From the NCBI GenBank assembly GCA_964423885.1, contig CAYRGD010000004.1, positions 8,319-72,318 of the forward strand: a DNA stretch of 64,000 nt. Direction: 5' to 3'. Each line of letters opens with the position of its first letter. The stretch's first letter is position 1. The DNA comes from an uncultured Candidatus Saccharibacteria bacterium (GTDB lineage Bacteria; Patescibacteriota; UBA1384; JACPKC01). Below the pieces are notes generated by a model that ran no database searches, was not told where the DNA came from, and saw only the letters and a program-made list of their open reading frames with translations. Both the position numbers and the translations under genes were made by a program. Below are positions 44,009-64,000 of this stretch, one piece after another.

Positions 44009-45094
44009 ATGCCCACAGAGAAGCTGTTAGTCGGGATGAGTGGCGGCGTAGACTCGTCGCTCGCGGCGGCGTTGCTCGTCGAGGCCGGCCACGAGGTGGT
44101 CGGCGTCTACCTGCGCGCCTGGGACGACGCGACCGCGCCGTTCCTGAAAGGGTACTGCCCATGGGAAGACGACATCGCCGACGCCCGGCGCGTCGCCGCC
44201 ACGCTCGGTATTCCGTTTGCGGTCATCGACGTCCGTGCCGCGTACCGCGAGCGGGTGGTGGCTGCGCTCGAGGCCGAGTACGCCGCCGGCCGGACCCCGA
44301 ACCCGGATATCCTGTGCAACCGCGAGATGAAGTTCGGCATCCTGCTTGAGCTTGCCAAACAAGAAGGGTACGACGGCGTGGCGACTGGCCACTACGCCCG
44401 GATCCTCGATGTGGACGGGGAGCTGCAACTGCATCGCGCGGCCGATACTCATAAGGACCAGAGCTACTTCCTCTGGACACTCACGGACGAGCAGCTGCCG
44501 TTCATCCGTTTTCCCATCGGCCATCTGACGAAGGCGCACGTCCGTGCCGAGGCGGCCGCGCGCGGCATACCGGTCGCTGCGAAGCCGGACAGCCAGGGCG
44601 TCTGCTTCCTGGGGCCGGTCTCGTTGCGCGACTACCTCAAGGAGCGATTGAAGACCGAGCCGGGCACTGTGCGGACTGAAGCCGGTACGGCGATCGGCCG
44701 GCACGACGGCGCGGCGCTCTACACCATGGGCCAGCGGCACGGCTTTACGGTCGAGGGCGCGTACCCCGGCCCGCACTATGTCGTCGAGCGCCGCTTGGCC
44801 ACCAACGAGCTCGTGGTCGCCCCGGTGCCACCTCAGAGCGCTCGCATTACGCTCGACGCGTGCTCGTGGATCGCGCGACCGGCCGACGGCAGCACCATCG
44901 GCATCCGGATCCGGCACGGCCAGGATCCCCAGCCGGCTCTCATCCGGTTCTCAGGATCGGCTGCCATCATCGATCCCGTGGACGCGCAGACCGCTGTTGC
45001 GCCCGGACAGTCGGTGGTATGCTCGCACGGATCACGCATCCTAGGCGGAGGTATCGTTGGCACTGCGACGCCGGTTCCTACCCGGCACCCTTAG
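44009..45094 (+). CDS. mnmA: tRNA-specific 2-thiouridylase MnmA
   Basis: VGMSGGVDSS PP-loop and the catalytic Cys region. TATACT 9 nt upstream of the ATG. Confidence 0.9.
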   Translation: MPTEKLLVGMSGGVDSSLAAALLVEAGHEVVGVYLRAWDDATAPFLKGYCPWEDDIADARRVAATLGIPFAVIDVRAAYRERVVAALEAEYAAGRTPNPDILCNREMKFGILLELAKQEGYDGVATGHYARILDVDGELQLHRAADTHKDQSYFLWTLTDEQLPFIRFPIGHLTKAHVRAEAAARGIPVAAKPDSQGVCFLGPVSLRDYLKERLKTEPGTVRTEAGTAIGRHDGAALYTMGQRHGFTVEGAYPGPHYVVERRLATNELVVAPVPPQSARITLDACSWIARPADGSTIGIRIRHGQDPQPALIRFSGSAAIIDPVDAQTAVAPGQSVVCSHGSRILGGGIVGTATPVPTRHP

Positions 45095-46259
45095 TTTCGT
45101 TCTCCTCATCCTGGCGACCTTTTCGCTTGGGACGCTCGTGGGTGCCCGTACCATCCGCGACTACCCGCTCACGCGCATGGGCCAACTGCTCACCAGCGTC
45201 CTCGGTGCACCGGCAACGACCCCTGACTACGCGCTCTACTGGGACGTCTACCGTCGGCTCGAGACGCAGTACCCCAAGCCGATCGACAAGCAGGAACTGC
45301 TCTATGGGGCGATCCGCGGCACCGTCGCGGCCCTGGGCGACCGGTTCAGCCTGTTCCTGTCGCCGAGCGAGGCCAACCGGTTCTTCGAGGACATCAAGGG
45401 CGAGTTCAGCGGCATCGGCGCCGAGATCTCGCAGGAACAGGACCTGTTCGTGATCGTAGCCCCGCTCCCCGGCTCGCCGGCCGAGGCCGCCGGCCTCAAG
45501 GCGAACGATGCCATCGTCTCGGTCGACGGCAAGGAATCCCAGGGTATGCAGTTCAACGAACTCATCAACGCGATCCGCGGCCCGAAGGGGAGCACGGTCA
45601 AGCTCGGTATCCTGCGCGAGGGCTTCGATGAACCCAAGGAGTTCGCGCTCACCCGGGACACGATCACCGTGGCCTCGACGACGTACACGCTTCGCCCCGA
45701 CGGTCTGGCGTACGTGAAGATCAGCCAGTTCTCCGACGATACGACCGCGGAACTCGACAAGGCGGCCGACGACATCCTGGCCAAGCACGCGACGGGGATC
45801 ATCGTCGACCTGCGGAACGACCCAGGCGGCTACCTGGAAACCGCGATCGACGTCAGCTCGTTCTTCCTTGATCACGGCACCGTGGTGAGCGAGGAACGTA
45901 AGGGCGGGGATACGGAGTCGTTCGCGGTCAGCCATGAACCGCGCCTCAAAGACATCCCACTCGTGGTGCTCGTGAACGGCGGCTCAGCGTCGGCCTCGGA
46001 AATCTTCGCTGGCGCGATGCAGGATACTGGCCGCGCGAAGCTCGTGGGCGTCAAGACCTTCGGCAAGGGTTCCGTACAGGAAGTCCAGCGGCTAGCCGAC
46101 GGCTCGGCGCTCCGCCTCACGATCGCCAAGTGGCTCACGCCGAACGGCCGCGAGATCAACGGTACCGGCATCGAACCGGACTTCGAGGTCCGCGCCGACG
46201 CGACCGCTGACAGCGACCCGCAGCTCGACAAAGCGGTGGAGTTGTTGCTGAAGCAGTAG
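45057..46259 (+). CDS. ctpA: Carboxy-terminal processing protease (S41, PDZ-containing); TTG start uncertain
   Basis: Signal anchor, a PDZ domain (GSPAEAAGLKANDAIVSVDG) and an S41 core (..VLVNGGSASASEIFAGA.. / ..KTFGKGSVQ). Confidence 0.8.
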   Translation: MALRRRFLPGTLSFVLLILATFSLGTLVGARTIRDYPLTRMGQLLTSVLGAPATTPDYALYWDVYRRLETQYPKPIDKQELLYGAIRGTVAALGDRFSLFLSPSEANRFFEDIKGEFSGIGAEISQEQDLFVIVAPLPGSPAEAAGLKANDAIVSVDGKESQGMQFNELINAIRGPKGSTVKLGILREGFDEPKEFALTRDTITVASTTYTLRPDGLAYVKISQFSDDTTAELDKAADDILAKHATGIIVDLRNDPGGYLETAIDVSSFFLDHGTVVSEERKGGDTESFAVSHEPRLKDIPLVVLVNGGSASASEIFAGAMQDTGRAKLVGVKTFGKGSVQEVQRLADGSALRLTIAKWLTPNGREINGTGIEPDFEVRADATADSDPQLDKAVELLLKQ

Positions 46260-46271
46260 CCGAGGTGTGCC

Positions 46272-47051
46272 ATGCCAACCGATCCAAAGACGATTCAGTG
46301 GTACAACGAGCACGCCGACGAGTACACGGAGCATGTCCGTAGCAAGGGACAGTCGGTCTACCATTCCCTGTACGAAAAGCCGGCAATGCGGGCGCTGCTT
46401 CCAGATCTCGATGGCAAGCAGGTATTGAGTATTGGCTGCGGGCCAGGCGAGGATGCGGCGCACCTGCAATCAGCGGGCGCAGCGAAATCGGTTGGGATCG
46501 ATATCTCCGAACAGCTAATCGTGCGAGCACGAGCGGCGCATCCTGCTTGTGAGTTTCACGTGATGGATATGGAGCAGCTCGCGTTTACGGATGCATCGTT
46601 CGATGTTGCGTACGCCAGTTTGGCGCTCCACTATTTGGAGGACTGGTCGCAGGTGTTTACCGAGGTGTATCGCGTACTTCGGCCCGGCGGATCGTTTCTG
46701 TTCTCGTGCGGGCACCCAACCTTTACGGCTATGGCGATCACCGAAGATACGGCAGAGCGGCGAGCGCGGATGCTTGGGGTGGTAAAGCACCCAACAACAA
46801 AGACCCGCGATATCGTCGGCGACTACTTCCGGCGGCGGATTGATGACACGGGCGGCGAGCAGATGGATGTTACTACCTGGCACAAACCGCTTACCGAGAT
46901 TGCCGCCGAGGCGACCGGCGCCGGCTTTGTAATAACCGCCCTTGTCGAGCCAACGCCACTGCCAGCAATGCAGTCCACCAATCCCGAGCAGTACAAGATG
47001 CTCTCGGCAATCCCGTTCTTTCTCATTCTAAAACTTGAGAAGCAGCAATGA
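46272..47051 (+). CDS. Class I SAM-dependent methyltransferase (Methyltransf_11/UbiE-like small-molecule type)
   Basis: VLSIGCGPGEDA motif I and a ..LRPGGSFLF post-II motif. Lower GC than the flanks. No DNA-MTase motifs. Confidence 0.75.
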   Translation: MPTDPKTIQWYNEHADEYTEHVRSKGQSVYHSLYEKPAMRALLPDLDGKQVLSIGCGPGEDAAHLQSAGAAKSVGIDISEQLIVRARAAHPACEFHVMDMEQLAFTDASFDVAYASLALHYLEDWSQVFTEVYRVLRPGGSFLFSCGHPTFTAMAITEDTAERRARMLGVVKHPTTKTRDIVGDYFRRRIDDTGGEQMDVTTWHKPLTEIAAEATGAGFVITALVEPTPLPAMQSTNPEQYKMLSAIPFFLILKLEKQQ

Positions 47052-47102
47052 CTCGCGCACACCCGGGAGATCGGTAGCTCGGCAGTAGTGGAGTTGCTGC
47101 TG

Positions 47103-47131
47103 AAAAAATAAGAGAGACTCGAGTCTCTCTT
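47103..47131 (-). terminator. Terminator hairpin (perfect 22-bp palindrome AAGAGAGACTCGAGTCTCTCTT) with an A/T tract; serves the minus-strand gene
   Basis: Palindrome at 47110-47131 preceded by AAAAAATA, which is a U-tract on the minus strand. Confidence 0.6.
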
Positions 47132-47144
47132 CTCTGGTCCGAAC

Positions 47145-47795
47145 TCATGTACCCTGGATCGCAATCGTGACTAATCGGTACCCAGCTCCGTTGGCTCGTT
47201 TGGAAGGCCCTTTTTTACAGATACCTGCGTTGCAGAGCTTTTTTATCTGACCCAAGACGGTGGTCCGTTTTATTCCGATACCACGAGCAAGCTCTGCCGA
47301 GCTTACGAGCTTGGATTGCGTTGATAGGTATTCCACGATCTCTTTTGAGATATGGAACGTGCCGAATCGTGGCAATCCGGATAAGGGGTGCGGGATATAC
47401 GACGCTTCCGCTTCGATCTCGATGCCGAGCAACGAAAATTGATTCGGGGTGCAGTTCCGGTCAATCAATAGTATTTGTCCAAGTGTATGGAGAGCGCGTC
47501 CAAGGCTGTCGGTAACGACCTCGCTTGCGTCCTGAACAATGATCGGGATTCTCCGTTCGATACTCGATTGACTGAGTCGCAGAAGATTGACTACCAGATG
47601 ATCCGCATAGCGCGAGGACAAGCAGTCGACTTGCTTGAAGTTGAGATAGAGGGCTTGATCTGTTGCTAACGCTTTCATATGCCGTTCCTGAATGCCTGGC
47701 ATGATCGTAGAAAGCGTGATATCTGACGGTGTTCTTCGCTTGGCGGGATCAGCATAGATCCCCTCCGGCAAGAGGAATACAATTTCATCAACCAT
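47145..47795 (-). CDS. Hypothetical regulator: N-terminal alpha/beta domain (..LSSRYADHLVVNLL.., possibly STAS-like/DUF4325-like) plus a C-terminal winged-helix HTH
   Basis: C-terminal ..SSAELARGIGIKRTTVLGQIKKLCNAGICKK....GYRL (wHTH). Low GC. Paralog of 47995..48642. Confidence 0.5.
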   Translation of the reverse strand: MVDEIVFLLPEGIYADPAKRRTPSDITLSTIMPGIQERHMKALATDQALYLNFKQVDCLSSRYADHLVVNLLRLSQSSIERRIPIIVQDASEVVTDSLGRALHTLGQILLIDRNCTPNQFSLLGIEIEAEASYIPHPLSGLPRFGTFHISKEIVEYLSTQSKLVSSAELARGIGIKRTTVLGQIKKLCNAGICKKGPSKRANGAGYRLVTIAIQGT

Positions 47796-47882
47796 TCGAT
47801 TCGCTCCAAATTAACGTGCTCGAACCTTGATTCGCCTGGGTGAGTATAGCGACTTGGTGTATGTCCAACAACGGTACATTTT

Positions 47883-47949
47883 CTTAAGAAAAACGGCCCC
47901 ATGCTTAAGGGGAGCAGTCGACAGTCGCTACGACGTATGTTGAATTCAA
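47883..47949. promoter_or_regulatory. Palindrome-rich divergent promoter/operator region between the paralogous wHTH genes
   Basis: CTTAAG x2 (47883-47888, 47904-47909), GTCGAC (47917-47922) and the 10-bp palindrome TTGAATTCAA (47940-47949). Confidence 0.4.
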
Positions 47950-47994
47950 TCCAAGCTAGCCTATAGCTGAGTTTCTTTTACAAAGGATGATGAA

Positions 47995-48642
47995 ATGGAA
48001 GAACAGGACACCGAAGCGAGTCCTGACGCTGAAGAGGATTACTTGCAGTACTCCTTTCCCGTCGGGGCCTATCTCGATACCCGGATCCCTAGTGAACAGC
48101 CCGGACGGCCTTCACCGATTGCCGCCATCGATTTGGCCCAAGCTATCTACGGGTGTCTTTCCGTAGCAGCGAAGAACGGCCATTGGGCGTTGCACTTGGA
48201 TGTAAGCGGTGTGGACTATATGAGCAGCCGCTATGCAACGTGGCTGGTTCGGAAGATTCTGAAAGCTACTTCGCATGATGAGGAATACCAACATATCCGC
48301 ATCGTAGTGACTGGGGCATCAGAATTAGTCTTAGAGCAGATCGAGGACTCGCTCGTTCTTGCAAAGCGCGTCGCATTCGCCGCAGCGCGGATATCGGACC
48401 AGCCCCGAATCCTTGGGGAGTTAGACGAAGTATTGCGAGCCTCGTTCGAGGCAATCCGGAACAACGGGCCTATGAACGCGCTGGAACTGTCGGAGATTCT
48501 TCGCGTACCAAGGCCGACAGCCGCGAACTACGTAGAGAGACTCTGCCGCTTTGGGCTGATCTCCAAAGTGAAATATCGGGGACGCAAAGGAGCCGCGTAC
48601 CGTTACTACTTCAGGTTGCCGGTTGCAGCCGGTAGCCAATGA
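47995..48642 (+). CDS. Hypothetical regulator, paralog of the divergent neighbour (N-terminal ..DYMSSRYATWLVRKIL.. domain plus C-terminal winged helix)
   Basis: C-terminal ..ALELSEILRVPRPTAANYVERLCRFGLISKV.YRGRKGAAYRY (wHTH). Low GC. Confidence 0.5.
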   Translation: MEEQDTEASPDAEEDYLQYSFPVGAYLDTRIPSEQPGRPSPIAAIDLAQAIYGCLSVAAKNGHWALHLDVSGVDYMSSRYATWLVRKILKATSHDEEYQHIRIVVTGASELVLEQIEDSLVLAKRVAFAAARISDQPRILGELDEVLRASFEAIRNNGPMNALELSEILRVPRPTAANYVERLCRFGLISKVKYRGRKGAAYRYYFRLPVAAGSQ

Positions 48643-48653
48643 CTATATCCCTT

Positions 48654-48682
48654 CGCCGCCCTCGGGCGGCGCTTTTCTTTTG
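48654..48682 (+). terminator. Rho-independent terminator: CGCCGCCC..GGGCGGCG followed by CTTTTCTTTTG
   Basis: 8-bp GC stem plus a T-tract after the stop at 48642. Confidence 0.7.
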
Positions 48683-48726
48683 TCTGGATTCCGTTAGGCT
48701 CAGGGCATAGGAAAGGAGCCTTGCCT

Positions 48727-49176
48727 ATGAAAGTTCTCCTCACGAAACCGGTCGCGCATCTAGGACTGCCAGGGGATGTCAAAGAGGTGAAAGACGGCTA
48801 CGCCCGCAACTACCTCATTCCGCAGGGCTTGGCGGTGCTGTCGTCCGATCCGATGGCCGGCCGGATCCACGCCGAGCTGGGCACGGCCCGGGCGCAGGCG
48901 GAGCAGGCAGCGAAACAGGCCGAGGCGTCGGCGGCGTCCTGGGAAGGCAAGCGCGTCGACCTTGCGGTGAAAGCCAATCCCGACGGCACCTTGTTCGGCG
49001 CGGTCACGGGCCGGGATATCGCCGAGTCGCTCGGCATCGATCCCAAGGACGTGCACTTCGAGAGCACCAAGGTGGCCGGCGAATCCACCGCCCGGATCGA
49101 CCTGGGATTCGGCGTCAGCGTCGAAATTCCTGTTATGATAGCTGCGGAAGGAACGAAGGCGCGGTCGCGCCGCTAA
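48727..49176 (+). CDS. rplI: 50S ribosomal protein L9
   Basis: MKVLLTKPVAHLGLPGDVKEVKDGYARNYLIPQGLA. AGGAG SD 7 nt upstream. Confidence 0.9.
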   Translation: MKVLLTKPVAHLGLPGDVKEVKDGYARNYLIPQGLAVLSSDPMAGRIHAELGTARAQAEQAAKQAEASAASWEGKRVDLAVKANPDGTLFGAVTGRDIAESLGIDPKDVHFESTKVAGESTARIDLGFGVSVEIPVMIAAEGTKARSRR

Positions 49177-52409: not shown

Positions 52410-55384
<2,975 letters not shown>

Positions 55385-55458: not shown

Positions 55459-55485
55459 TTGTACTTTCACAAGGAGGAAAAGACA

Positions 55486-56880
55486 TTGCTACAACCGAAC
55501 GGGGGGACATCCCTCATGCCGACGTACGGCGGGACGTTGGATCAGCCGACGTTTGCAACGATCCGACGGTATTTCTACAACCAACCAAAGAACGTGGCCT
55601 TTCTCGTTCACTCGCTCGATTTCCGTAAGGAACTAGGTTTGATCGAGCAGCAATCCGACAGTGCAAGACGGCGGTTGGAAAAGACCTGCCCCTTATTTGA
55701 GGCTGAAGTAAAAGATGAGAACGGCAATAGCAGTAAGGTAAGTAAGCAAAACTTCATCATCCGAGGGGCATTTGCCAAGTATGCGCTTAAGCCAATCGGT
55801 CAGTTTGAAGTTAAGTTCCGAGGTCGATCCTGTTACGGGCTCTTCCTGTTCGTTCCGTATTTGCCGGAGGAGTTTCAAGACCCTAGGAAAAAAAGAGAAA
55901 TTCTAGGGACACTGAAGCAGGCATTGATGGTCGCGAAAGAGCACGGGGCCGAGTATGTTGGTCTAGGCGCGTTCACGTCGATTATCAGCGCCAACGGATT
56001 GCTCTTGCAGAATGATTCGCCCGTACCGCTTACATCCGGCTCGTCCGGTACCGCGGTCTGGAACGAGCGGGGGGTGATGCATGGCTGCCAGCAGCTAGGC
56101 ATTAAGCCGCGCAGGAGCACATTAGTGATCCTGGGGACTGGCAGTGTCGGCACCCCGACAGCGCTTTTACTTGCTCACCGCTTCCAGCGCACGATCCTGT
56201 GCGCACGGGGCCGGGCCGACCTGGAATCGTTGCGGGCGAACCTCATCCAGCTCGGTTGCAAGCCGAACCGGATCGAGATCAACAACAGCGACTTCAATGC
56301 CGCTGCACGAGACGCGGACGTATTGGTGTTGGCAACCAGCGTTGCATCGTCGGCCCAGTTGGCACTTGATCCACGAATGATCCGCCCAGGATCGCTCGTG
56401 CTCGACGTTGGCCGCCCCCGGAATTTTCCGCCGGAGGCGGTCGCAACGGCGCCCTACTTGGTTATCGACGGCTCAATCTGCCGGTTTCCAGGAAAGATCA
56501 CCGATGACTCGTACAAATTGGTGGGCATGGGCCAGCCGAACGAGGCCTGGGGGTGCCTGGCGGAAACGATCTTCCGCGGCCTCGACGGTGAACTGGCCAG
56601 TACCAGTATTGGTAATTTCATTCGCCGAGGTGAGCTCAAAGAAGCGCAGCGGATGTTGCGCGTCCTGAATGCGAAAATGAGCCGCTGTGGGTTCGAGCTC
56701 GCATCGCTCCGGTCAAATGACGTCGCACTCAGTCCTGAGCGAATCCAAGAGGTTCGTGTGATCCGGCGACGTGCGTTAAAGCTGCAGCGTATGCAGCATG
56801 TCCAACACATTAAACACAATCTCAACGCGAACTGGGAACGGTTTGCCGGCCGTCCCTCCGAACAACCCGGGACCCCGTAA
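55486..56880 (+). CDS. Acyl-ACP reductase (AAR)-family oxidoreductase homolog with N- and C-terminal extensions. Start TTG 55486 (SD-spaced), ATG 55516 or TTG 55459.
   Basis: Collinear with cyanobacterial AAR: FLVHSLDF, GAFTSII, Rossmann LVILGTGSVG, ..DVLVLATS.., ..LVLDVGRPRN and a Cys-containing ..DGSICRF. Low GC. Confidence 0.55.
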   Translation: MLQPNGGTSLMPTYGGTLDQPTFATIRRYFYNQPKNVAFLVHSLDFRKELGLIEQQSDSARRRLEKTCPLFEAEVKDENGNSSKVSKQNFIIRGAFAKYALKPIGQFEVKFRGRSCYGLFLFVPYLPEEFQDPRKKREILGTLKQALMVAKEHGAEYVGLGAFTSIISANGLLLQNDSPVPLTSGSSGTAVWNERGVMHGCQQLGIKPRRSTLVILGTGSVGTPTALLLAHRFQRTILCARGRADLESLRANLIQLGCKPNRIEINNSDFNAAARDADVLVLATSVASSAQLALDPRMIRPGSLVLDVGRPRNFPPEAVATAPYLVIDGSICRFPGKITDDSYKLVGMGQPNEAWGCLAETIFRGLDGELASTSIGNFIRRGELKEAQRMLRVLNAKMSRCGFELASLRSNDVALSPERIQEVRVIRRRALKLQRMQHVQHIKHNLNANWERFAGRPSEQPGTP

Positions 56881-56895
56881 GGGGTCCTTTTTCTT
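56870..56895 (+). terminator. Rho-independent terminator: GGGACCCC-GTAA-GGGGTCC followed by TTTTT. The TAA stop codon sits in the loop.
   Basis: Hairpin 56869-56887 plus T5. Confidence 0.65.
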
Positions 56896-56909
56896 GTATA
56901 GTGGCATAT

Positions 56910-58316
56910 ATGCCAGAGCGAGGGGCGGGCTTCGTGCCCGATGAATACGTAGAGTCGGCGCCGGAGAGCCACCAGCCGCCCGAACCGCCAATAGCAGCCG
57001 AGCCCGTACGCGAAGCACCGCCCGCGGTCAACGAGGCGGAAGCCCTTGTGCGGCAGCTGCAAGGCGAGGGCCAGAAGCAGAGCGAAGGGCGGTTCACCAA
57101 GGATATCGCCCGCGAGACGGGCCTTGCCATGAAAGAGGCGGGCAGCGCAGAGGGGGCCTTGAGTTATGCAGGCTACAGGCTGATCAAATCCACACTGACG
57201 CCCCTAATTGGCGAGATGCAGGATCTTAAAGAGCTCTCGCAAAAGCAGGCACTGGATGCGGAACAACAGCAGCGCCTATCCGACCTGCTGCCGACCGCCC
57301 GTGCCTGGGAACTGACGCTTGGGCCGCTCGCAAAGAAGTTAGACGCGAGCCTATTGCAGCGGCCCGACATTTTGAATTCATACGCGTCTCTCTGGGATAG
57401 AAAAGACGAGCGGAAGGAAAGACTGGAAAACAAACGGTCCCGCTCCGAAGATCACCTCATCAACGGGCTCCCGCTGATACTGCTCACGGATGATCTGTCC
57501 TATCTCATCAGGAACGCATCATCCGCCCAGGGAGAGTTCGATGAGGCTGCGTATGATGCGCAGCGGGCGTACGTCCGGCACTGTGGCGATCTATTTACTA
57601 AGCTGCCGTGGAATCATCGCAGTGAGTTTATGAAGATGATCGTAGAGAAGCCGGAATTATCAGGAGAGTTCGACGACCTTGCTGATGGATCCTCGCGCCT
57701 TCCGTTGCTCGAGCAGATCGGTGTATCTCATGCTCGCGAATCGACACTGGAGGAGACACTGGAGAATAAGGTGCGTAAATCGTGGGAACGGTCATGGGAG
57801 CAGTTTGATGCATTACTGAAGAACTCAGAACTAGGGCCGTACCTCGAAGCGATACAGCAATTGGATGCTATGGATAATGGTCGTGGCAATATCAAGCTCC
57901 GACCTCAAGATTATGAGAGAGAGCTTGAGGATAAGCGTCCGTTTCTCGTTATGCGCGTAGGCGACTTTGCACTGGAGTCCGCGCCGGATAAAGATCGGCG
58001 ACCCGCCGCGACGCTTGGCCGTATCCGCGAGCTCAATACAAAAATGAAGGAGCTCCGTTTATCCATGGACGTGAATCCGATGTCCGTTCTCGGATTCCGA
58101 GAGCATCGCAGCACCGAATCTCTCAAGGAGCGGAGGCCGAAGTCCGGTTCCATTTTCCTTGGCAACGAGTACCTCATGAGCAAGCGGCCGGATATCTTCC
58201 TGAACGGTAACGTATTCGACCTGTCCCGCAAGAAAGAGGAATACGGCGAGCGGCCGACCTACCTTGGCGACAGCGACTACGTGATTGTCCGGAACAACAA
58301 CTCGGAGCGTGCCTAG
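56910..58316 (+). CDS. Hypothetical soluble 469-aa protein with no recognisable domain; alternative GTG start at 56901
   Basis: Low GC and an extended -10 TTGTATAGT 7 nt upstream of the ATG (leaderless). Charged and helix-rich. Confidence 0.5.
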   Translation: MPERGAGFVPDEYVESAPESHQPPEPPIAAEPVREAPPAVNEAEALVRQLQGEGQKQSEGRFTKDIARETGLAMKEAGSAEGALSYAGYRLIKSTLTPLIGEMQDLKELSQKQALDAEQQQRLSDLLPTARAWELTLGPLAKKLDASLLQRPDILNSYASLWDRKDERKERLENKRSRSEDHLINGLPLILLTDDLSYLIRNASSAQGEFDEAAYDAQRAYVRHCGDLFTKLPWNHRSEFMKMIVEKPELSGEFDDLADGSSRLPLLEQIGVSHARESTLEETLENKVRKSWERSWEQFDALLKNSELGPYLEAIQQLDAMDNGRGNIKLRPQDYERELEDKRPFLVMRVGDFALESAPDKDRRPAATLGRIRELNTKMKELRLSMDVNPMSVLGFREHRSTESLKERRPKSGSIFLGNEYLMSKRPDIFLNGNVFDLSRKKEEYGERPTYLGDSDYVIVRNNNSERA

Positions 58317-58358: not shown

Positions 58359-58673
58359 ATGAAACGCGAGGATATCGAGCAGTTGGCGGCGTTGGCGCGG
58401 CTTTCGCTATCGGACGACGAGTTGGCGGAGCGCGGCCAGGATCTGGATGCGATCCTGGGCTACGTCGCGCAGCTTGAGGCGGTCGACGTGACCGGCCTTG
58501 AACCCACCAGCCAGGTGACCGGACTCATGAACGTCCTCCGCGACGACGTGCCGGCCGAAGCGACCGAGGAACAGCTCCTTACCCGCCGGGCCGAGTTGCT
58601 GGCCACGGCGCCCGACCAGCACGACGGCTACGTCCGCGTCCCCGGGGTATTCGCCCAAGGCGGCGACGAATGA
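58359..58673 (+). CDS. gatC: Asp/Glu-tRNA(Asn/Gln) amidotransferase subunit C
   Basis: ..LARLSLSDDEL......L..IL.YV.QL..VD..G.EP. ATGA overlap with gatA. Confidence 0.85.
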   Translation: MKREDIEQLAALARLSLSDDELAERGQDLDAILGYVAQLEAVDVTGLEPTSQVTGLMNVLRDDVPAEATEEQLLTRRAELLATAPDQHDGYVRVPGVFAQGGDE

Positions 58674-60151
58674 GCTTGCTCGGCACGATCGCGGATGCTG
58701 CCAAGCGCTTGGCAGCCGGCGAGGTGTCGGCCAAGGAATTGGCCGAAGAGCACCTCAGCCGGATCGTAGAGCACAATCCTGCGCTCAACGCGTACCTGTC
58801 CGTCGACCGCGAGGGCGCGATCGCGGCTGCCGAGGCGTCGGACGTCCGCCGGGCCGAGGGCAAAGCCTTGGGCCTGCTCGATGGGATCCCGGTGTCTGTC
58901 AAAGACGTATTCACCACCAAGGGGATCGAGACGACCGCGGCGTCCACGATGCTCGAAGGGTTCGTACCGGCCTATGACGCGACGATCGTCAGCCGCTTGA
59001 AGGATGCCGGCACGGTGATCCTCGGCAAGGTCAATTGCGATGCCTGGGCGCACGGATCGAGCACCGAAAATTCCGACTTCGGGCCGAGCAAGAATCCGTG
59101 GGATAGCGCTCGGGTGCCGGGCGGCAGCTCGGGCGGTTCGTCGGCCGCGGTGGCAGCGGGGCTGGGACTGGCCTCGTTGGGTACCGACACCGGCGGTTCG
59201 ATCCGCCAACCGGCGGCACTCACCGGCACGACCGGCTTGAAACCTACCTACGGCCGCCTGTCGCGCCACGGCCTCATCGCCATGGCGAGCTCGCTCGATT
59301 GCCCTGGCCCGATCACGCGCACCGCCGAGGACGCGGCGATCTTGCTCCACGCGCTCTCGTCACCCGATCCCATGGACGCCACCACCTTGCCCGAGGCGCG
59401 GTTTCCGCTCGTGGCGGTCGGCGACCAGCCGAAGCCGCTCGACGGGTTACGCATCGGCCTGCCGCGCGAGTACTTCGCCGATGGCCTGGCCGCCGACGTG
59501 GCCGAGCGAGTCCAGGCAGCGGTCCGGCAGCTTGAGGCGCTCGGCGCCACGATCGTCGATGTTTCGCTCCCGACCACGCCCTACGCCTTGGCGGCCTACT
59601 ACGTAATCATGCCGGCCGAGGTGTCGAGCAACCTGGCGCGCTACGACGGCATCCGCTACGGCTACCGCGCGGACGCGCCCAAGGATCTGTACGACCTGTA
59701 CGTACGCTCGCGCTCCGAAGGCCTAGGCATCGAGGCCAAGCGGCGGATCATGCTCGGCACGTTCGTATTGTCGCACGGGTACTACGACGCGTACTACAAG
59801 AAGGCGATGCAGGTGCGCACCAAATTGATCGACGATTACACCCGCGTCTTCGGCGAGGTGGATATCCTGGCCACGCCGACCACGCCGAATCCCGCCTTCA
59901 AATTCGGTGAGAAGACAGCCGACCCGCTCGCCATGTACTTGGAGGATATCTACACCGTCTCGGCCAACCTGGCCGGCATCCCCGGCATCTCGGTGCCGTG
60001 CGGCTTCGTCGAGCGCGAGGGGAGCGAGTTGCCGGTCGGTGTGCAGCTGTTGGGGCCGCAACTGGGTGAGGAAGCGATCCTGCGCGCCGCCATAAGCTAC
60101 CAGCGGGAGACGGATTGGCACCAGAAACACGCTCCGGGGTTCATGCGATGA
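58670..60151 (+). CDS. gatA: Asp/Glu-tRNA(Asn/Gln) amidotransferase subunit A
   Basis: Amidase signature ..GGSSGGSSAAVAAG.. and a catalytic Ser-cisSer-Lys context. Confidence 0.9.
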   Translation: MSLLGTIADAAKRLAAGEVSAKELAEEHLSRIVEHNPALNAYLSVDREGAIAAAEASDVRRAEGKALGLLDGIPVSVKDVFTTKGIETTAASTMLEGFVPAYDATIVSRLKDAGTVILGKVNCDAWAHGSSTENSDFGPSKNPWDSARVPGGSSGGSSAAVAAGLGLASLGTDTGGSIRQPAALTGTTGLKPTYGRLSRHGLIAMASSLDCPGPITRTAEDAAILLHALSSPDPMDATTLPEARFPLVAVGDQPKPLDGLRIGLPREYFADGLAADVAERVQAAVRQLEALGATIVDVSLPTTPYALAAYYVIMPAEVSSNLARYDGIRYGYRADAPKDLYDLYVRSRSEGLGIEAKRRIMLGTFVLSHGYYDAYYKKAMQVRTKLIDDYTRVFGEVDILATPTTPNPAFKFGEKTADPLAMYLEDIYTVSANLAGIPGISVPCGFVEREGSELPVGVQLLGPQLGEEAILRAAISYQRETDWHQKHAPGFMR

Positions 60152-63318: not shown

Positions 63319-64000
63319 TCAGCTCACCGTTTCAACGCTATGGACGCGGATGAAAGCCGGTGGGATCGGGCCTTGAACGAGCACTTCGGGGAATGAGGTG
63401 AACGTCCGTAGTCGTTCGGCCAGGGGTTGCGTTCGATACGTTGCCAATGGCACCGACGACTCCCAGTAGGCGTCTGCGTAGCTGGATGCGCTCTCCGAAC
63501 CCCAGCGCTTGAGACTTAGCATGAACTCGGTGAAATATTCCGCTTCGGCGACAAGGCCTGCGTCCGGATCCACCTTGAGTTCGAGCACGACGCCTCCCTT
63601 GCCCATACGGCTTCGTACCTCTCCTAAATCCGCGAATGCATAGACGGCTTGATCCCTGTGCATGGCTCCGGGTCTGCTCGGTGACGCGTCAACGGCTCCG
63701 TTCGCACGCAGATATTCCGTGCTTGCCGAAAGCTCCTCTGGCGAAAGCGCCTGCCGGGACGGCTGCAGCCCCTCTTGGGAAATCCGGGGTAATCGCCCTT
63801 CTTCGGTGTAGTGGAATACTGAGACGAAGTGGGAAGGCACGGCATCCGAAAATGCCTCCTTGAAGAGTGGGTTGCCTCGATGTTTTTGTTGCAGTTGCTG
63901 GTAGAGTTCCGATTTGAAGGCGTACTCGACGTCAAAGCGCTCTTTGAGCTCTGTCAGTACCTGCAGCTCTTCGTCGATCCATTCCTGTTCGTCGGTATCC
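63319..64000 (-). CDS. Hypothetical protein whose 5' end is probably beyond the window. The tracked ORF 63319..63840 begins with GTG, but the frame stays open to position 64000.
   Basis: Low GC. The upstream frame (..DEQEWIDEELQVLTELKERFDVEYAFKSELYQQLQQKH..) has no stops to the window edge. Confidence 0.4.
   Translation of the reverse strand, partial: DTDEQEWIDEELQVLTELKERFDVEYAFKSELYQQLQQKHRGNPLFKEAFSDAVPSHFVSVFHYTEEGRLPRISQEGLQPSRQALSPEELSASTEYLRANGAVDASPSRPGAMHRDQAVYAFADLGEVRSRMGKGGVVLELKVDPDAGLVAEAEYFTEFMLSLKRWGSESASSYADAYWESSVPLATYRTQPLAERLRTFTSFPEVLVQGPIPPAFIRVHSVETVS

Follow-up and report, generated by a model that had tools for sequence, protein, structure and literature searches.

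CapS is a DNA-binding homodimeric repressor from the CapK-CapS pair (Chambers et al., EMBO J 2026; PMC13373217), solved for the proteins of Enterobacter roggenkampii and Vibrio cholerae. Its partner CapK, a kinase of helix-turn-helix (HTH)-STAS-GHKL architecture encoded directly upstream of capS, is switched on by single-stranded DNA (ssDNA) and phosphorylates CapS at Ser54 on STAS helix alpha2, so that the dimer comes apart and transcription is derepressed; Ser54 is absolutely conserved and lies buried against the partner protomer, among its acidic and polar residues (PMC13373217). The operators of CapS are palindromes of TTAA half-sites in two spacings, located in its own promoter and in the promoter of the downstream immune operon, and capS comes immediately after capK in 443 of 443 cases (PMC13373217). 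Repressors of this type, a STAS domain joined to a winged helix-turn-helix (wHTH), were first defined in 2026, in each case as the substrate of a neighbouring kinase that ssDNA activates and that guards immune operons (PMC13373217). The present analysis concerns two divergent genes, A and B, in a 64,000-nucleotide stretch (hereafter the window) of contig CAYRGD010000004.1 from an uncultured Candidatus Saccharibacteria bacterium (GenBank assembly GCA_964423885.1). The proteins A and B very probably belong to the STAS-wHTH family of CapS, and the pair is judged, on balance, to be an orphan, horizontally acquired, kinase-less pair of CapS-like repressors that auto- or cross-regulate from a shared promoter region.

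A and B are paralogues of ancient divergence that align by BLASTP at 25% identity (E 4e-8) and have the motif SSRYA in common (CLSSRYAD in A, YMSSRYAT in B). The initial annotation of the window had described both as an N-terminal domain followed by a C-terminal winged HTH, which holds for the two proteins, and had listed a conserved MSSRYA motif, of which SSRYA is present in both but the exact MSSRYA in B alone. Pfam gave weak wHTH matches in the C-terminal third and no match for the N-terminal part, and neither protein matches the PF14213 (DUF4325) model, even at E ≤ 1. When all 1.84 billion cluster representatives were scanned by HMMER with a profile of A, B and P0002, a homologue of B, 39 proteins were returned at E ≤ 1e-3, mostly of ~185 aa. 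Five of the 39 (P0004, P0005, P0007, P0008 and P0011) carry the signature of the A/B subfamily, and the remaining full two-domain matches are proteins of ~180-200 aa. Ten of 33 aligned family members match PF14213 (best E 3e-8) and most match wHTH families, so the STAS-like/DUF4325 guess of the initial annotation was right; in hhalign comparisons with the canonical CapS-type profile, A alone gave 97.7% (E 1.5e-12) and B alone 99.0% (E 3e-18), and the A/B subfamily aligned to the canonical proteins at 99.8% (E 4e-28). The canonical family profile matches the CapS structures full length (9z71 at E 1e-25, 9z72 at E 6.5e-23), as the family profile does 9z71, 9z72 and 9z73 at E ~1e-21 to 1e-25. Against the CapS sequence itself the A/B subfamily gave 86% (E 5e-6), colinear through both domains. 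By way of these intermediates the link to CapS, though remote, is significant and the homology solid. The earlier remark that no described family could be recognised is outdated: CapS, a STAS-wHTH repressor, was both described and structurally solved in 2026 (PMC13373217; PDB 9z71-9z73).

The fold of A is predicted with confidence; its recognition helix is divergent (RTTVLGQIKKL) and a disordered linker of 20 aa is inserted. B has the recognition helix RPTAANYVERL, of the form RPTAANY(V/L)E(R/K)L common to B, P0002 and P0004, and an acidic tail of ~16 aa as its only extra N-terminal part. A novel N-terminal extension was considered and rejected, the F-x-P-x-G-x-Y motif being the beta1-beta2 hairpin of the STAS fold. 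The subfamily is very rare, with ~8 sequences among the 1.84 billion representatives, each of them alone in its cluster or almost so. A and B themselves and one homologue of B, P0002 (66%), were all that word-indexed searches of 5.8 billion proteins turned up, and a third search, using the family alignment, added little. No match was obtained by tblastn of A and B against 72,556 plasmids, no close relatives were found among GTDB species representatives, JGI metagenome contigs or IMG/VR viral contigs, and a fold search of BFVD gave generic wHTH matches only, at low TM-scores. A is equally distant from all subfamily members, at 16-28% identity, and has a weak affinity to P0005 and P0008 in clustering, P0008 being from a Patescibacteria metagenome-assembled genome (MAG); a recent tandem duplication giving rise to A and B was rejected because A groups weakly with these two and not with the B clade. 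P0005 (on a contig of ENA ERZ27297709) and P0008 (L084, 1-966), the nearest to A, have a second C-terminal wHTH; an open reading frame (ORF) of 77 aa comes after each of the two genes, and both adjoin genes of a DNA-repair type, one of them RmuC and the other a UvrD/PDDEXK helicase-nuclease.

A and B differ from CapS in having neither an adjacent CapK kinase nor a downstream immune operon, and in carrying an Arg in the aligned column where CapS has the phospho-acceptor Ser54. On the ORF map, no kinase gene was found in or near the low-GC islet that holds A and B (47.1-48.7 kb), and no HATPase gene within it; tblastn with two kinases of the family had no match at E < 0.01, either in the window or in contigs L001, L082 and L084. 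No immune or stress operon follows either gene: B is followed by a terminator and rplI, and A converges on a methyltransferase gene. A defence system was also rejected, PADLOC having given wHTH-level or methyltransferase-domain similarity only and no system-level match. The phospho-serine column holds Arg in A (R62) and B (R79) in four profile alignments; P0002 and P0004 likewise have Arg, and the column is variable (C, V or A) in the other subfamily members. Two serines, S60/S61 in A and S77/S78 in B, precede it by one to two residues; they sit at the N-terminal end of the predicted STAS helix alpha2, and the first of these positions is S or T in 8/8 subfamily members. The acceptor could therefore be shifted, and a remote alignment can be off by one residue. 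Canonical family members present another arrangement, P0010 (on three contigs) and P0020 lying directly downstream of a HATPase_c/HATPase_c_2 protein of ~300 aa. In L085 (847-4432), P0020, which matches DUF4325, stands after the HATPase_c protein and before ThiF (E1-like) and GIY-YIG genes, and the locus looks like a CapK-CapS pair before a Bub-like ubiquitination-type operon as described in PMC13373217. Because of the missing kinase gene, the missing immune operon and the Arg in the phospho-serine column, A and B were classed not with the CapKS systems but in a kinase-less branch of the STAS-wHTH superfamily. An Arg at the buried position of Ser54 could, we infer, give a constitutive dimer.

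The closest relatives of B are encoded on mobile-element contigs. P0002 and P0004, with 66% and 45% identity to B, were located on the Logan contigs L001 (23.6 kb) and L082 (20.8 kb), respectively, which share a module of a DnaG-like primase, a DUF3800 protein, the B-type gene and two Replic_Relax genes. The DnaG-like primases of the two contigs are 59% identical, a TrwB-type coupling protein is encoded in L001 only, and this gene set indicates a conjugative or mobilisable element. The DNA of B is 76% identical over 661 bp to the gene in L001, and ~95 bp upstream of B align to the region upstream of P0002 in the same contig, including the TTGAA/TTCAA repeat and the ribosome-binding site AAGGA. 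Small divergent ORFs beside the homologues of B were considered as counterparts of A and rejected, as they are not homologous to each other. The low-GC region around the pair has a GC content of 0.46-0.57 over ~46350-48750 in 300-nt windows, with flanks at 0.63-0.71, in line with the dip between ctpA and rplI noted in the initial annotation, and the 47-48 kb bin has the lowest GC (0.49) of the entire window. GC content at third codon positions (GC3) is 0.54 in A, 0.61 in B and 0.67 in the methyltransferase gene, compared with 0.79-0.90 in neighbouring housekeeping genes. The horizontal acquisition proposed earlier is supported by GC3 and by the mobile-element context of the nearest relatives of B; judging from the alignments, B and its own promoter were evidently transferred from a conjugative-type element, and B probably derives from the replication-control module of such an element.

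A and B are transcribed divergently over a 199-bp intergenic region (47796-47994; GC 0.45) that holds six perfect palindromes of at least 6 nt and gave no Rfam match to a structured RNA at E ≤ 1. In comparison to 5000 dinucleotide-preserving shuffles of this region, the longest palindrome, at 14 nt, has P=0.013 and the presence of two palindromes of at least 10 nt has P=0.016. CTTAAG occurs at only 4 sites in the 64 kb, 2 of which are in this region. The cross-sample alignment of the B promoter is stronger support for an operator than the palindrome excess: at homologous promoter positions, the window reads TTGAATTCAATCCAA and L001, upstream of P0002, reads TTGAATGCAGTTCAA. The motif TGAA-N5-TTCA is present three times in L001 (at 361, 3567 and 3656; 0.15 expected) and twice in L082 (0.07 expected), counts that were reached in 0/200 shuffles for each contig, and every such site in the two contigs precedes either the primase gene or a B-type regulator gene. 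Those before the primase gene are ~130-145 nt away from its start codon. The palindromes had been taken for operators in the initial annotation; at least one of them, TTGAATTCAA, is a credible candidate operator by virtue of the TGAA...TTCA that recurs upstream of B-type genes elsewhere, and the first CTTAAG turned out to be the core of a 14-nt palindrome, but the excess of palindromes as such is modest. Upstream of the DnaG-like primase in L001 (340-420) and in L082 (12200-12300, minus strand), TGAA-N5-TTCA has a GC-rich inverted repeat after it, TTCCTGCCGCCRCCWCCCCGGCGGCGC, that is conserved and could be a promoter-proximal hairpin or an origin/ssi-like element.

Homology, fold, foreign base composition, the setting of the relatives of B on mobile elements, the recurrence of the motif and the lack of a kinase in the loci searched are established by the sequence comparisons. 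We infer DNA binding at these sites, repression, dimerisation and the pairing of each protein with a palindrome as parts of a proposed mechanism that has about an even chance of being correct. A and B would each dimerise, probably via the STAS-like domain, and bind inverted repeats of the 199-bp region via the winged helix. B would bind the TGAA...TYCA repeat overlapping its own promoter and thereby repress its own transcription, A, with its different recognition helix, would bind the CTTAAG palindromes nearer the A promoter, and the two would form an auto- or cross-regulated divergent promoter pair. Release from DNA, if any, would not proceed by CapK-type phosphorylation at the aligned residue, given the lack of a partner kinase and the Arg in the phospho-serine column. 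The targets of B-type regulators on the mobile elements appear to be the regulator gene itself and the DnaG-like primase gene, and the chromosomal pair would be an orphan remnant or a domesticated copy, left by such an element or guarding against it. The mutually or auto-regulated switch suggested in the initial annotation is a reasonable hypothesis.

Several observations weigh against a kinase-less repressor pair acquired from a mobile element and acting at these sites. A direct hidden Markov model comparison of the A/B subfamily with CapS gives a weak match (E 0.04-0.24) confined to the wHTH, and a kinase could be encoded beyond the 64 kb analysed. The A/B islet is not marked by an integrase gene, a tRNA gene or flanking repeats within the window. 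The six intergenic palindromes compare with 3.1±1.7 in the shuffles (P=0.08), a modest excess. The TGAA-N5-TTCA motif was picked post hoc from two of its sites, and the two primase-upstream sites are homologous DNA and so not independent, the repeat being the best-conserved stretch there. No perfect TGAA-N5-TTCA is present in the window, which has only the N0 form and an N5 form with one mismatch. The CTTAAG palindromes are tentatively assigned to A, whose recognition helix differs, and this assignment is a guess.

Three other explanations of the pair were weighed. In a canonical CapKS-type module, A and/or B would be phosphorylated on the STAS domain by a distant GHKL kinase activated by DNA damage, with derepression of a stress or immune operon. 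The homology of both proteins to CapS agrees with this, as do the serines just before the phospho-site, yet every capK of the published survey is immediately followed by capS (PMC13373217) and the islet holds no HATPase gene, the tblastn searches with the two family kinases were negative in the window, L001, L082 and L084, the phospho-serine column is occupied by Arg in A, B, P0002 and P0004 and by C, V or A elsewhere, and what lies downstream is rplI and a convergent methyltransferase instead of an immune operon. Such a module is considered quite improbable. Alternatively, B-type proteins could be replication or maintenance factors of the element (origin-binding, primase-loading or centromere-binding), with inert chromosomal copies. 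The tight placement of B-type genes beside the DnaG-like primase and Replic_Relax genes in two elements fits this role, the inverted repeat upstream of the primase adjoins a conserved GC-rich hairpin that is a possible origin/ssi-like element, and weak PHROG matches to replication initiators were obtained, arising from the wHTH. The sole characterised homologue, CapS, is however a repressor, the sites are not iterons but dyad repeats, spaced from the start codons as promoter elements would be, and P0005, P0007 and P0008 are in chromosomal-looking contexts without replication genes; a replication role is regarded as unlikely.

Finally, A and B could be decaying junk from an old insertion, with little or no expression and no function. 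The orphan status of the pair, the lack of any further mobile-element gene in the window and the fact that each protein of the lineage is a database singleton would all agree with such debris. Both ORFs are nevertheless intact and full length relative to their homologues, with a Shine-Dalgarno sequence and an own terminator each, the fold of A is confidently predicted and the promoter-proximal repeat of B is retained, which makes decay the least probable of these explanations, and very unlikely. The reading retained is that of an orphan pair of kinase-less, CapS-like repressors.

The low-GC region contains three intact ORFs on the ORF map, located between ctpA (45057-46259) and rplI (~48721-49176); their coordinates and those of the other features are collected in Table 1. 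A and B each have a Shine-Dalgarno sequence and their own intrinsic terminator, the hairpin between the methyltransferase gene and A being assigned to A by its T-run on the minus strand. Both hairpin terminators described in the initial annotation are real, but they are the ends of genes A and B and so enclose the A/B pair, not the entire island. Repeats resembling att sites around the whole island were searched for and none was found, the sole significant direct repeat bracketing the methyltransferase gene alone. The other genes of the L001/L082-type elements have no counterpart in the window.

Table 1. Coordinates of the genes, terminators, relic and palindromic elements of the low-GC region (window positions).
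Feature	Position	Strand	Length	Remarks
Methyltransferase gene	46272-47051	+	259 aa	
Relic copy of ctpA 3' end	47074-47111	+		...AVVELLLKK (stop); real end ...KAVELLLKQ (stop) at 46220-46259
Intrinsic terminator of gene A	47110-47131	-	22 nt	Perfect palindrome, longest in window; T-run on minus strand
Gene A	47145-47795	-	216 aa	STAS-wHTH protein
Palindrome TTTTCTTAAGAAAA	47879-47892		14 nt	Perfect; first CTTAAG is its core; candidate operator, putatively of A
Second CTTAAG	47904-47909			Centre 21 bp (two helical turns) from centre of first CTTAAG
GTCGAC	47917-47922			Palindrome
Palindrome TTGAATTCAA	47940-47949			
TTGAATTCAATCCAA	47940-47954			TGAA-N0-TTCA and TGAA-N5-TCCA; candidate operator of B; overlaps possible -35 element (TTGAAT)
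Inverted repeat AGCTA-N5-TAGCT	47954-47968			Different repeat at same position in L001, GCTGA-N11-TCAGC
GCTAGC	47955-47960			Palindrome
CTATAG	47961-47966			Palindrome
Gene B	47995-48642	+	215 aa	STAS-wHTH protein
Intrinsic terminator of gene B	48654-48681	+		Hairpin 48654-48671, then T-run

The methyltransferase was identified as class I and S-adenosylmethionine-dependent by Pfam Methyltransf_11 (E 4e-25; 88.7 bits against a cut-off of 21.2), and no NCBIfam equivalog model reaches its cut-off, with BioC and UbiE matches only below threshold. The gene starts 12 nt past the ctpA stop, which leaves it without a promoter region of its own, and converges on A. A relic copy of the ctpA 3' end stands right after its stop codon; the underlying 17-nt direct repeat (46236-52 and 47088-104) matches at 16/17 positions, with an extended alignment of ~76% over 38 nt, and any such repeat arose in just 4/300 shuffles of the 3.1-kb region. 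This relic indicates, from the sequence, that insertion of the methyltransferase gene parted ctpA from its former end and was an event separate from the arrival of A and B. The initial annotation had suggested the methyltransferase as a possible target of the switch, which is not borne out given the lack of a promoter region, the convergent orientation, the relic and the absence of a linked methyltransferase of this kind among the relatives of A and B; the gene adjoins the regulator pair and is neither part nor target of it.

A second low-GC patch (55459-58316; GC 0.55-0.60, GC3 0.66) lies between ligA (53312-55384) and gatA (58670-60151) and holds two unrelated ORFs of ~470 aa each, the first similar to an acyl-ACP reductase/PigE N-terminal reductase domain (NCBIfam E 8e-31, far under the cut-off) and the second without a family match. 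At the right end of the window, where GC is 0.58 in 63-64 kb, a minus-strand ORF (63319-63840, 173 aa) has an atypical GC3 of 0.64 and no family match. The called start of gatA falls within reach of the second-longest perfect palindrome of the window, the 20-nt GCTGCCAAGCGCTTGGCAGC at 58697-58716, which overlaps it. Every protein of the window for which a look-up was made is a singleton at 90% identity; the closest relatives of CtpA are just 41-45% identical, from Patescibacteria and Chloroflexota MAGs; the host is of a 66%-GC lineage essentially unsampled in reference collections.

Together with the two mobile-element contigs, the locus forms a very rare branch of the family that has neither the kinase nor the aligned phospho-serine. 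Its members appear to have been taken on as regulators of the primase (replication) module of conjugative-type elements in poorly sampled Patescibacteria- or Chloroflexota-like lineages. It provides a concrete operator prediction, TGAA-N5-TTCA, and raises the question of how a STAS-wHTH repressor switches without its kinase; its impact is that of an extension of a new family, and no new principle is involved. An unlikely further view is that A and B represent an offshoot of the CapS family that does not depend on phosphorylation, with Arg in place of the phospho-serine at the dimer interface, and that serves either as an immunity module against incoming elements or as a self-contained bistable switch. 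If this were so, the orphan pair would occupy the TGAA-N5-TTCA operators and shut off the primase/replication promoter of conjugative elements of the L001/L082 type or, alternatively, the two paralogues would form the bistable switch between themselves.

Compared with divergent repressor pairs of the lambda CI/Cro type, the A/B pair is similar in consisting of back-to-back DNA-binding proteins with a shared operator-rich region in a module derived from a mobile element; the folds are unrelated, A and B are paralogous to each other, and no lysogeny or transfer genes are attached to them. SpoIIAA/RsbV anti-sigma-factor antagonists, single-domain STAS proteins that act by partner switching, have the STAS fold in common with A and B, as well as a hydroxyl residue where helix alpha2 has its N-terminus; in A and B, by contrast, the STAS domain is joined to a wHTH that binds DNA, and no SpoIIAB/RsbW-type kinase or PP2C phosphatase is encoded nearby. 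VapS, the antitoxin of VapKSC (PDB 9z7o), has a related STAS domain, which the family profile matches at E 4e-4, but carries a short C-terminal helix in place of a wHTH and partners with VapK and the VapC PIN toxin; A and B carry a wHTH, and neither a PIN gene nor a kinase gene is found near them. The N-terminal domains of A and B are in the same superfamily as PF14213, by way of the canonical relatives that match it, with the signature S-S-R-Y-A instead of D-x-S-F-A-D-E. CapS itself is encoded by a single gene and not by two divergent paralogues, the identity of A and B to it is only ~12%, and the relatives of B stand by a primase on conjugative-type elements rather than beside Bub or CBASS operons. 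In common with CapS, A and B combine a STAS domain at the N-terminus with a wHTH at the C-terminus in one protein of ~185-215 aa, the homology is detectable though remote, palindromic repeats are present in the own promoter, and the TGAA half-sites at N0 and N5 spacings echo the 'narrow' and 'wide' TTAA palindromes of CapS.

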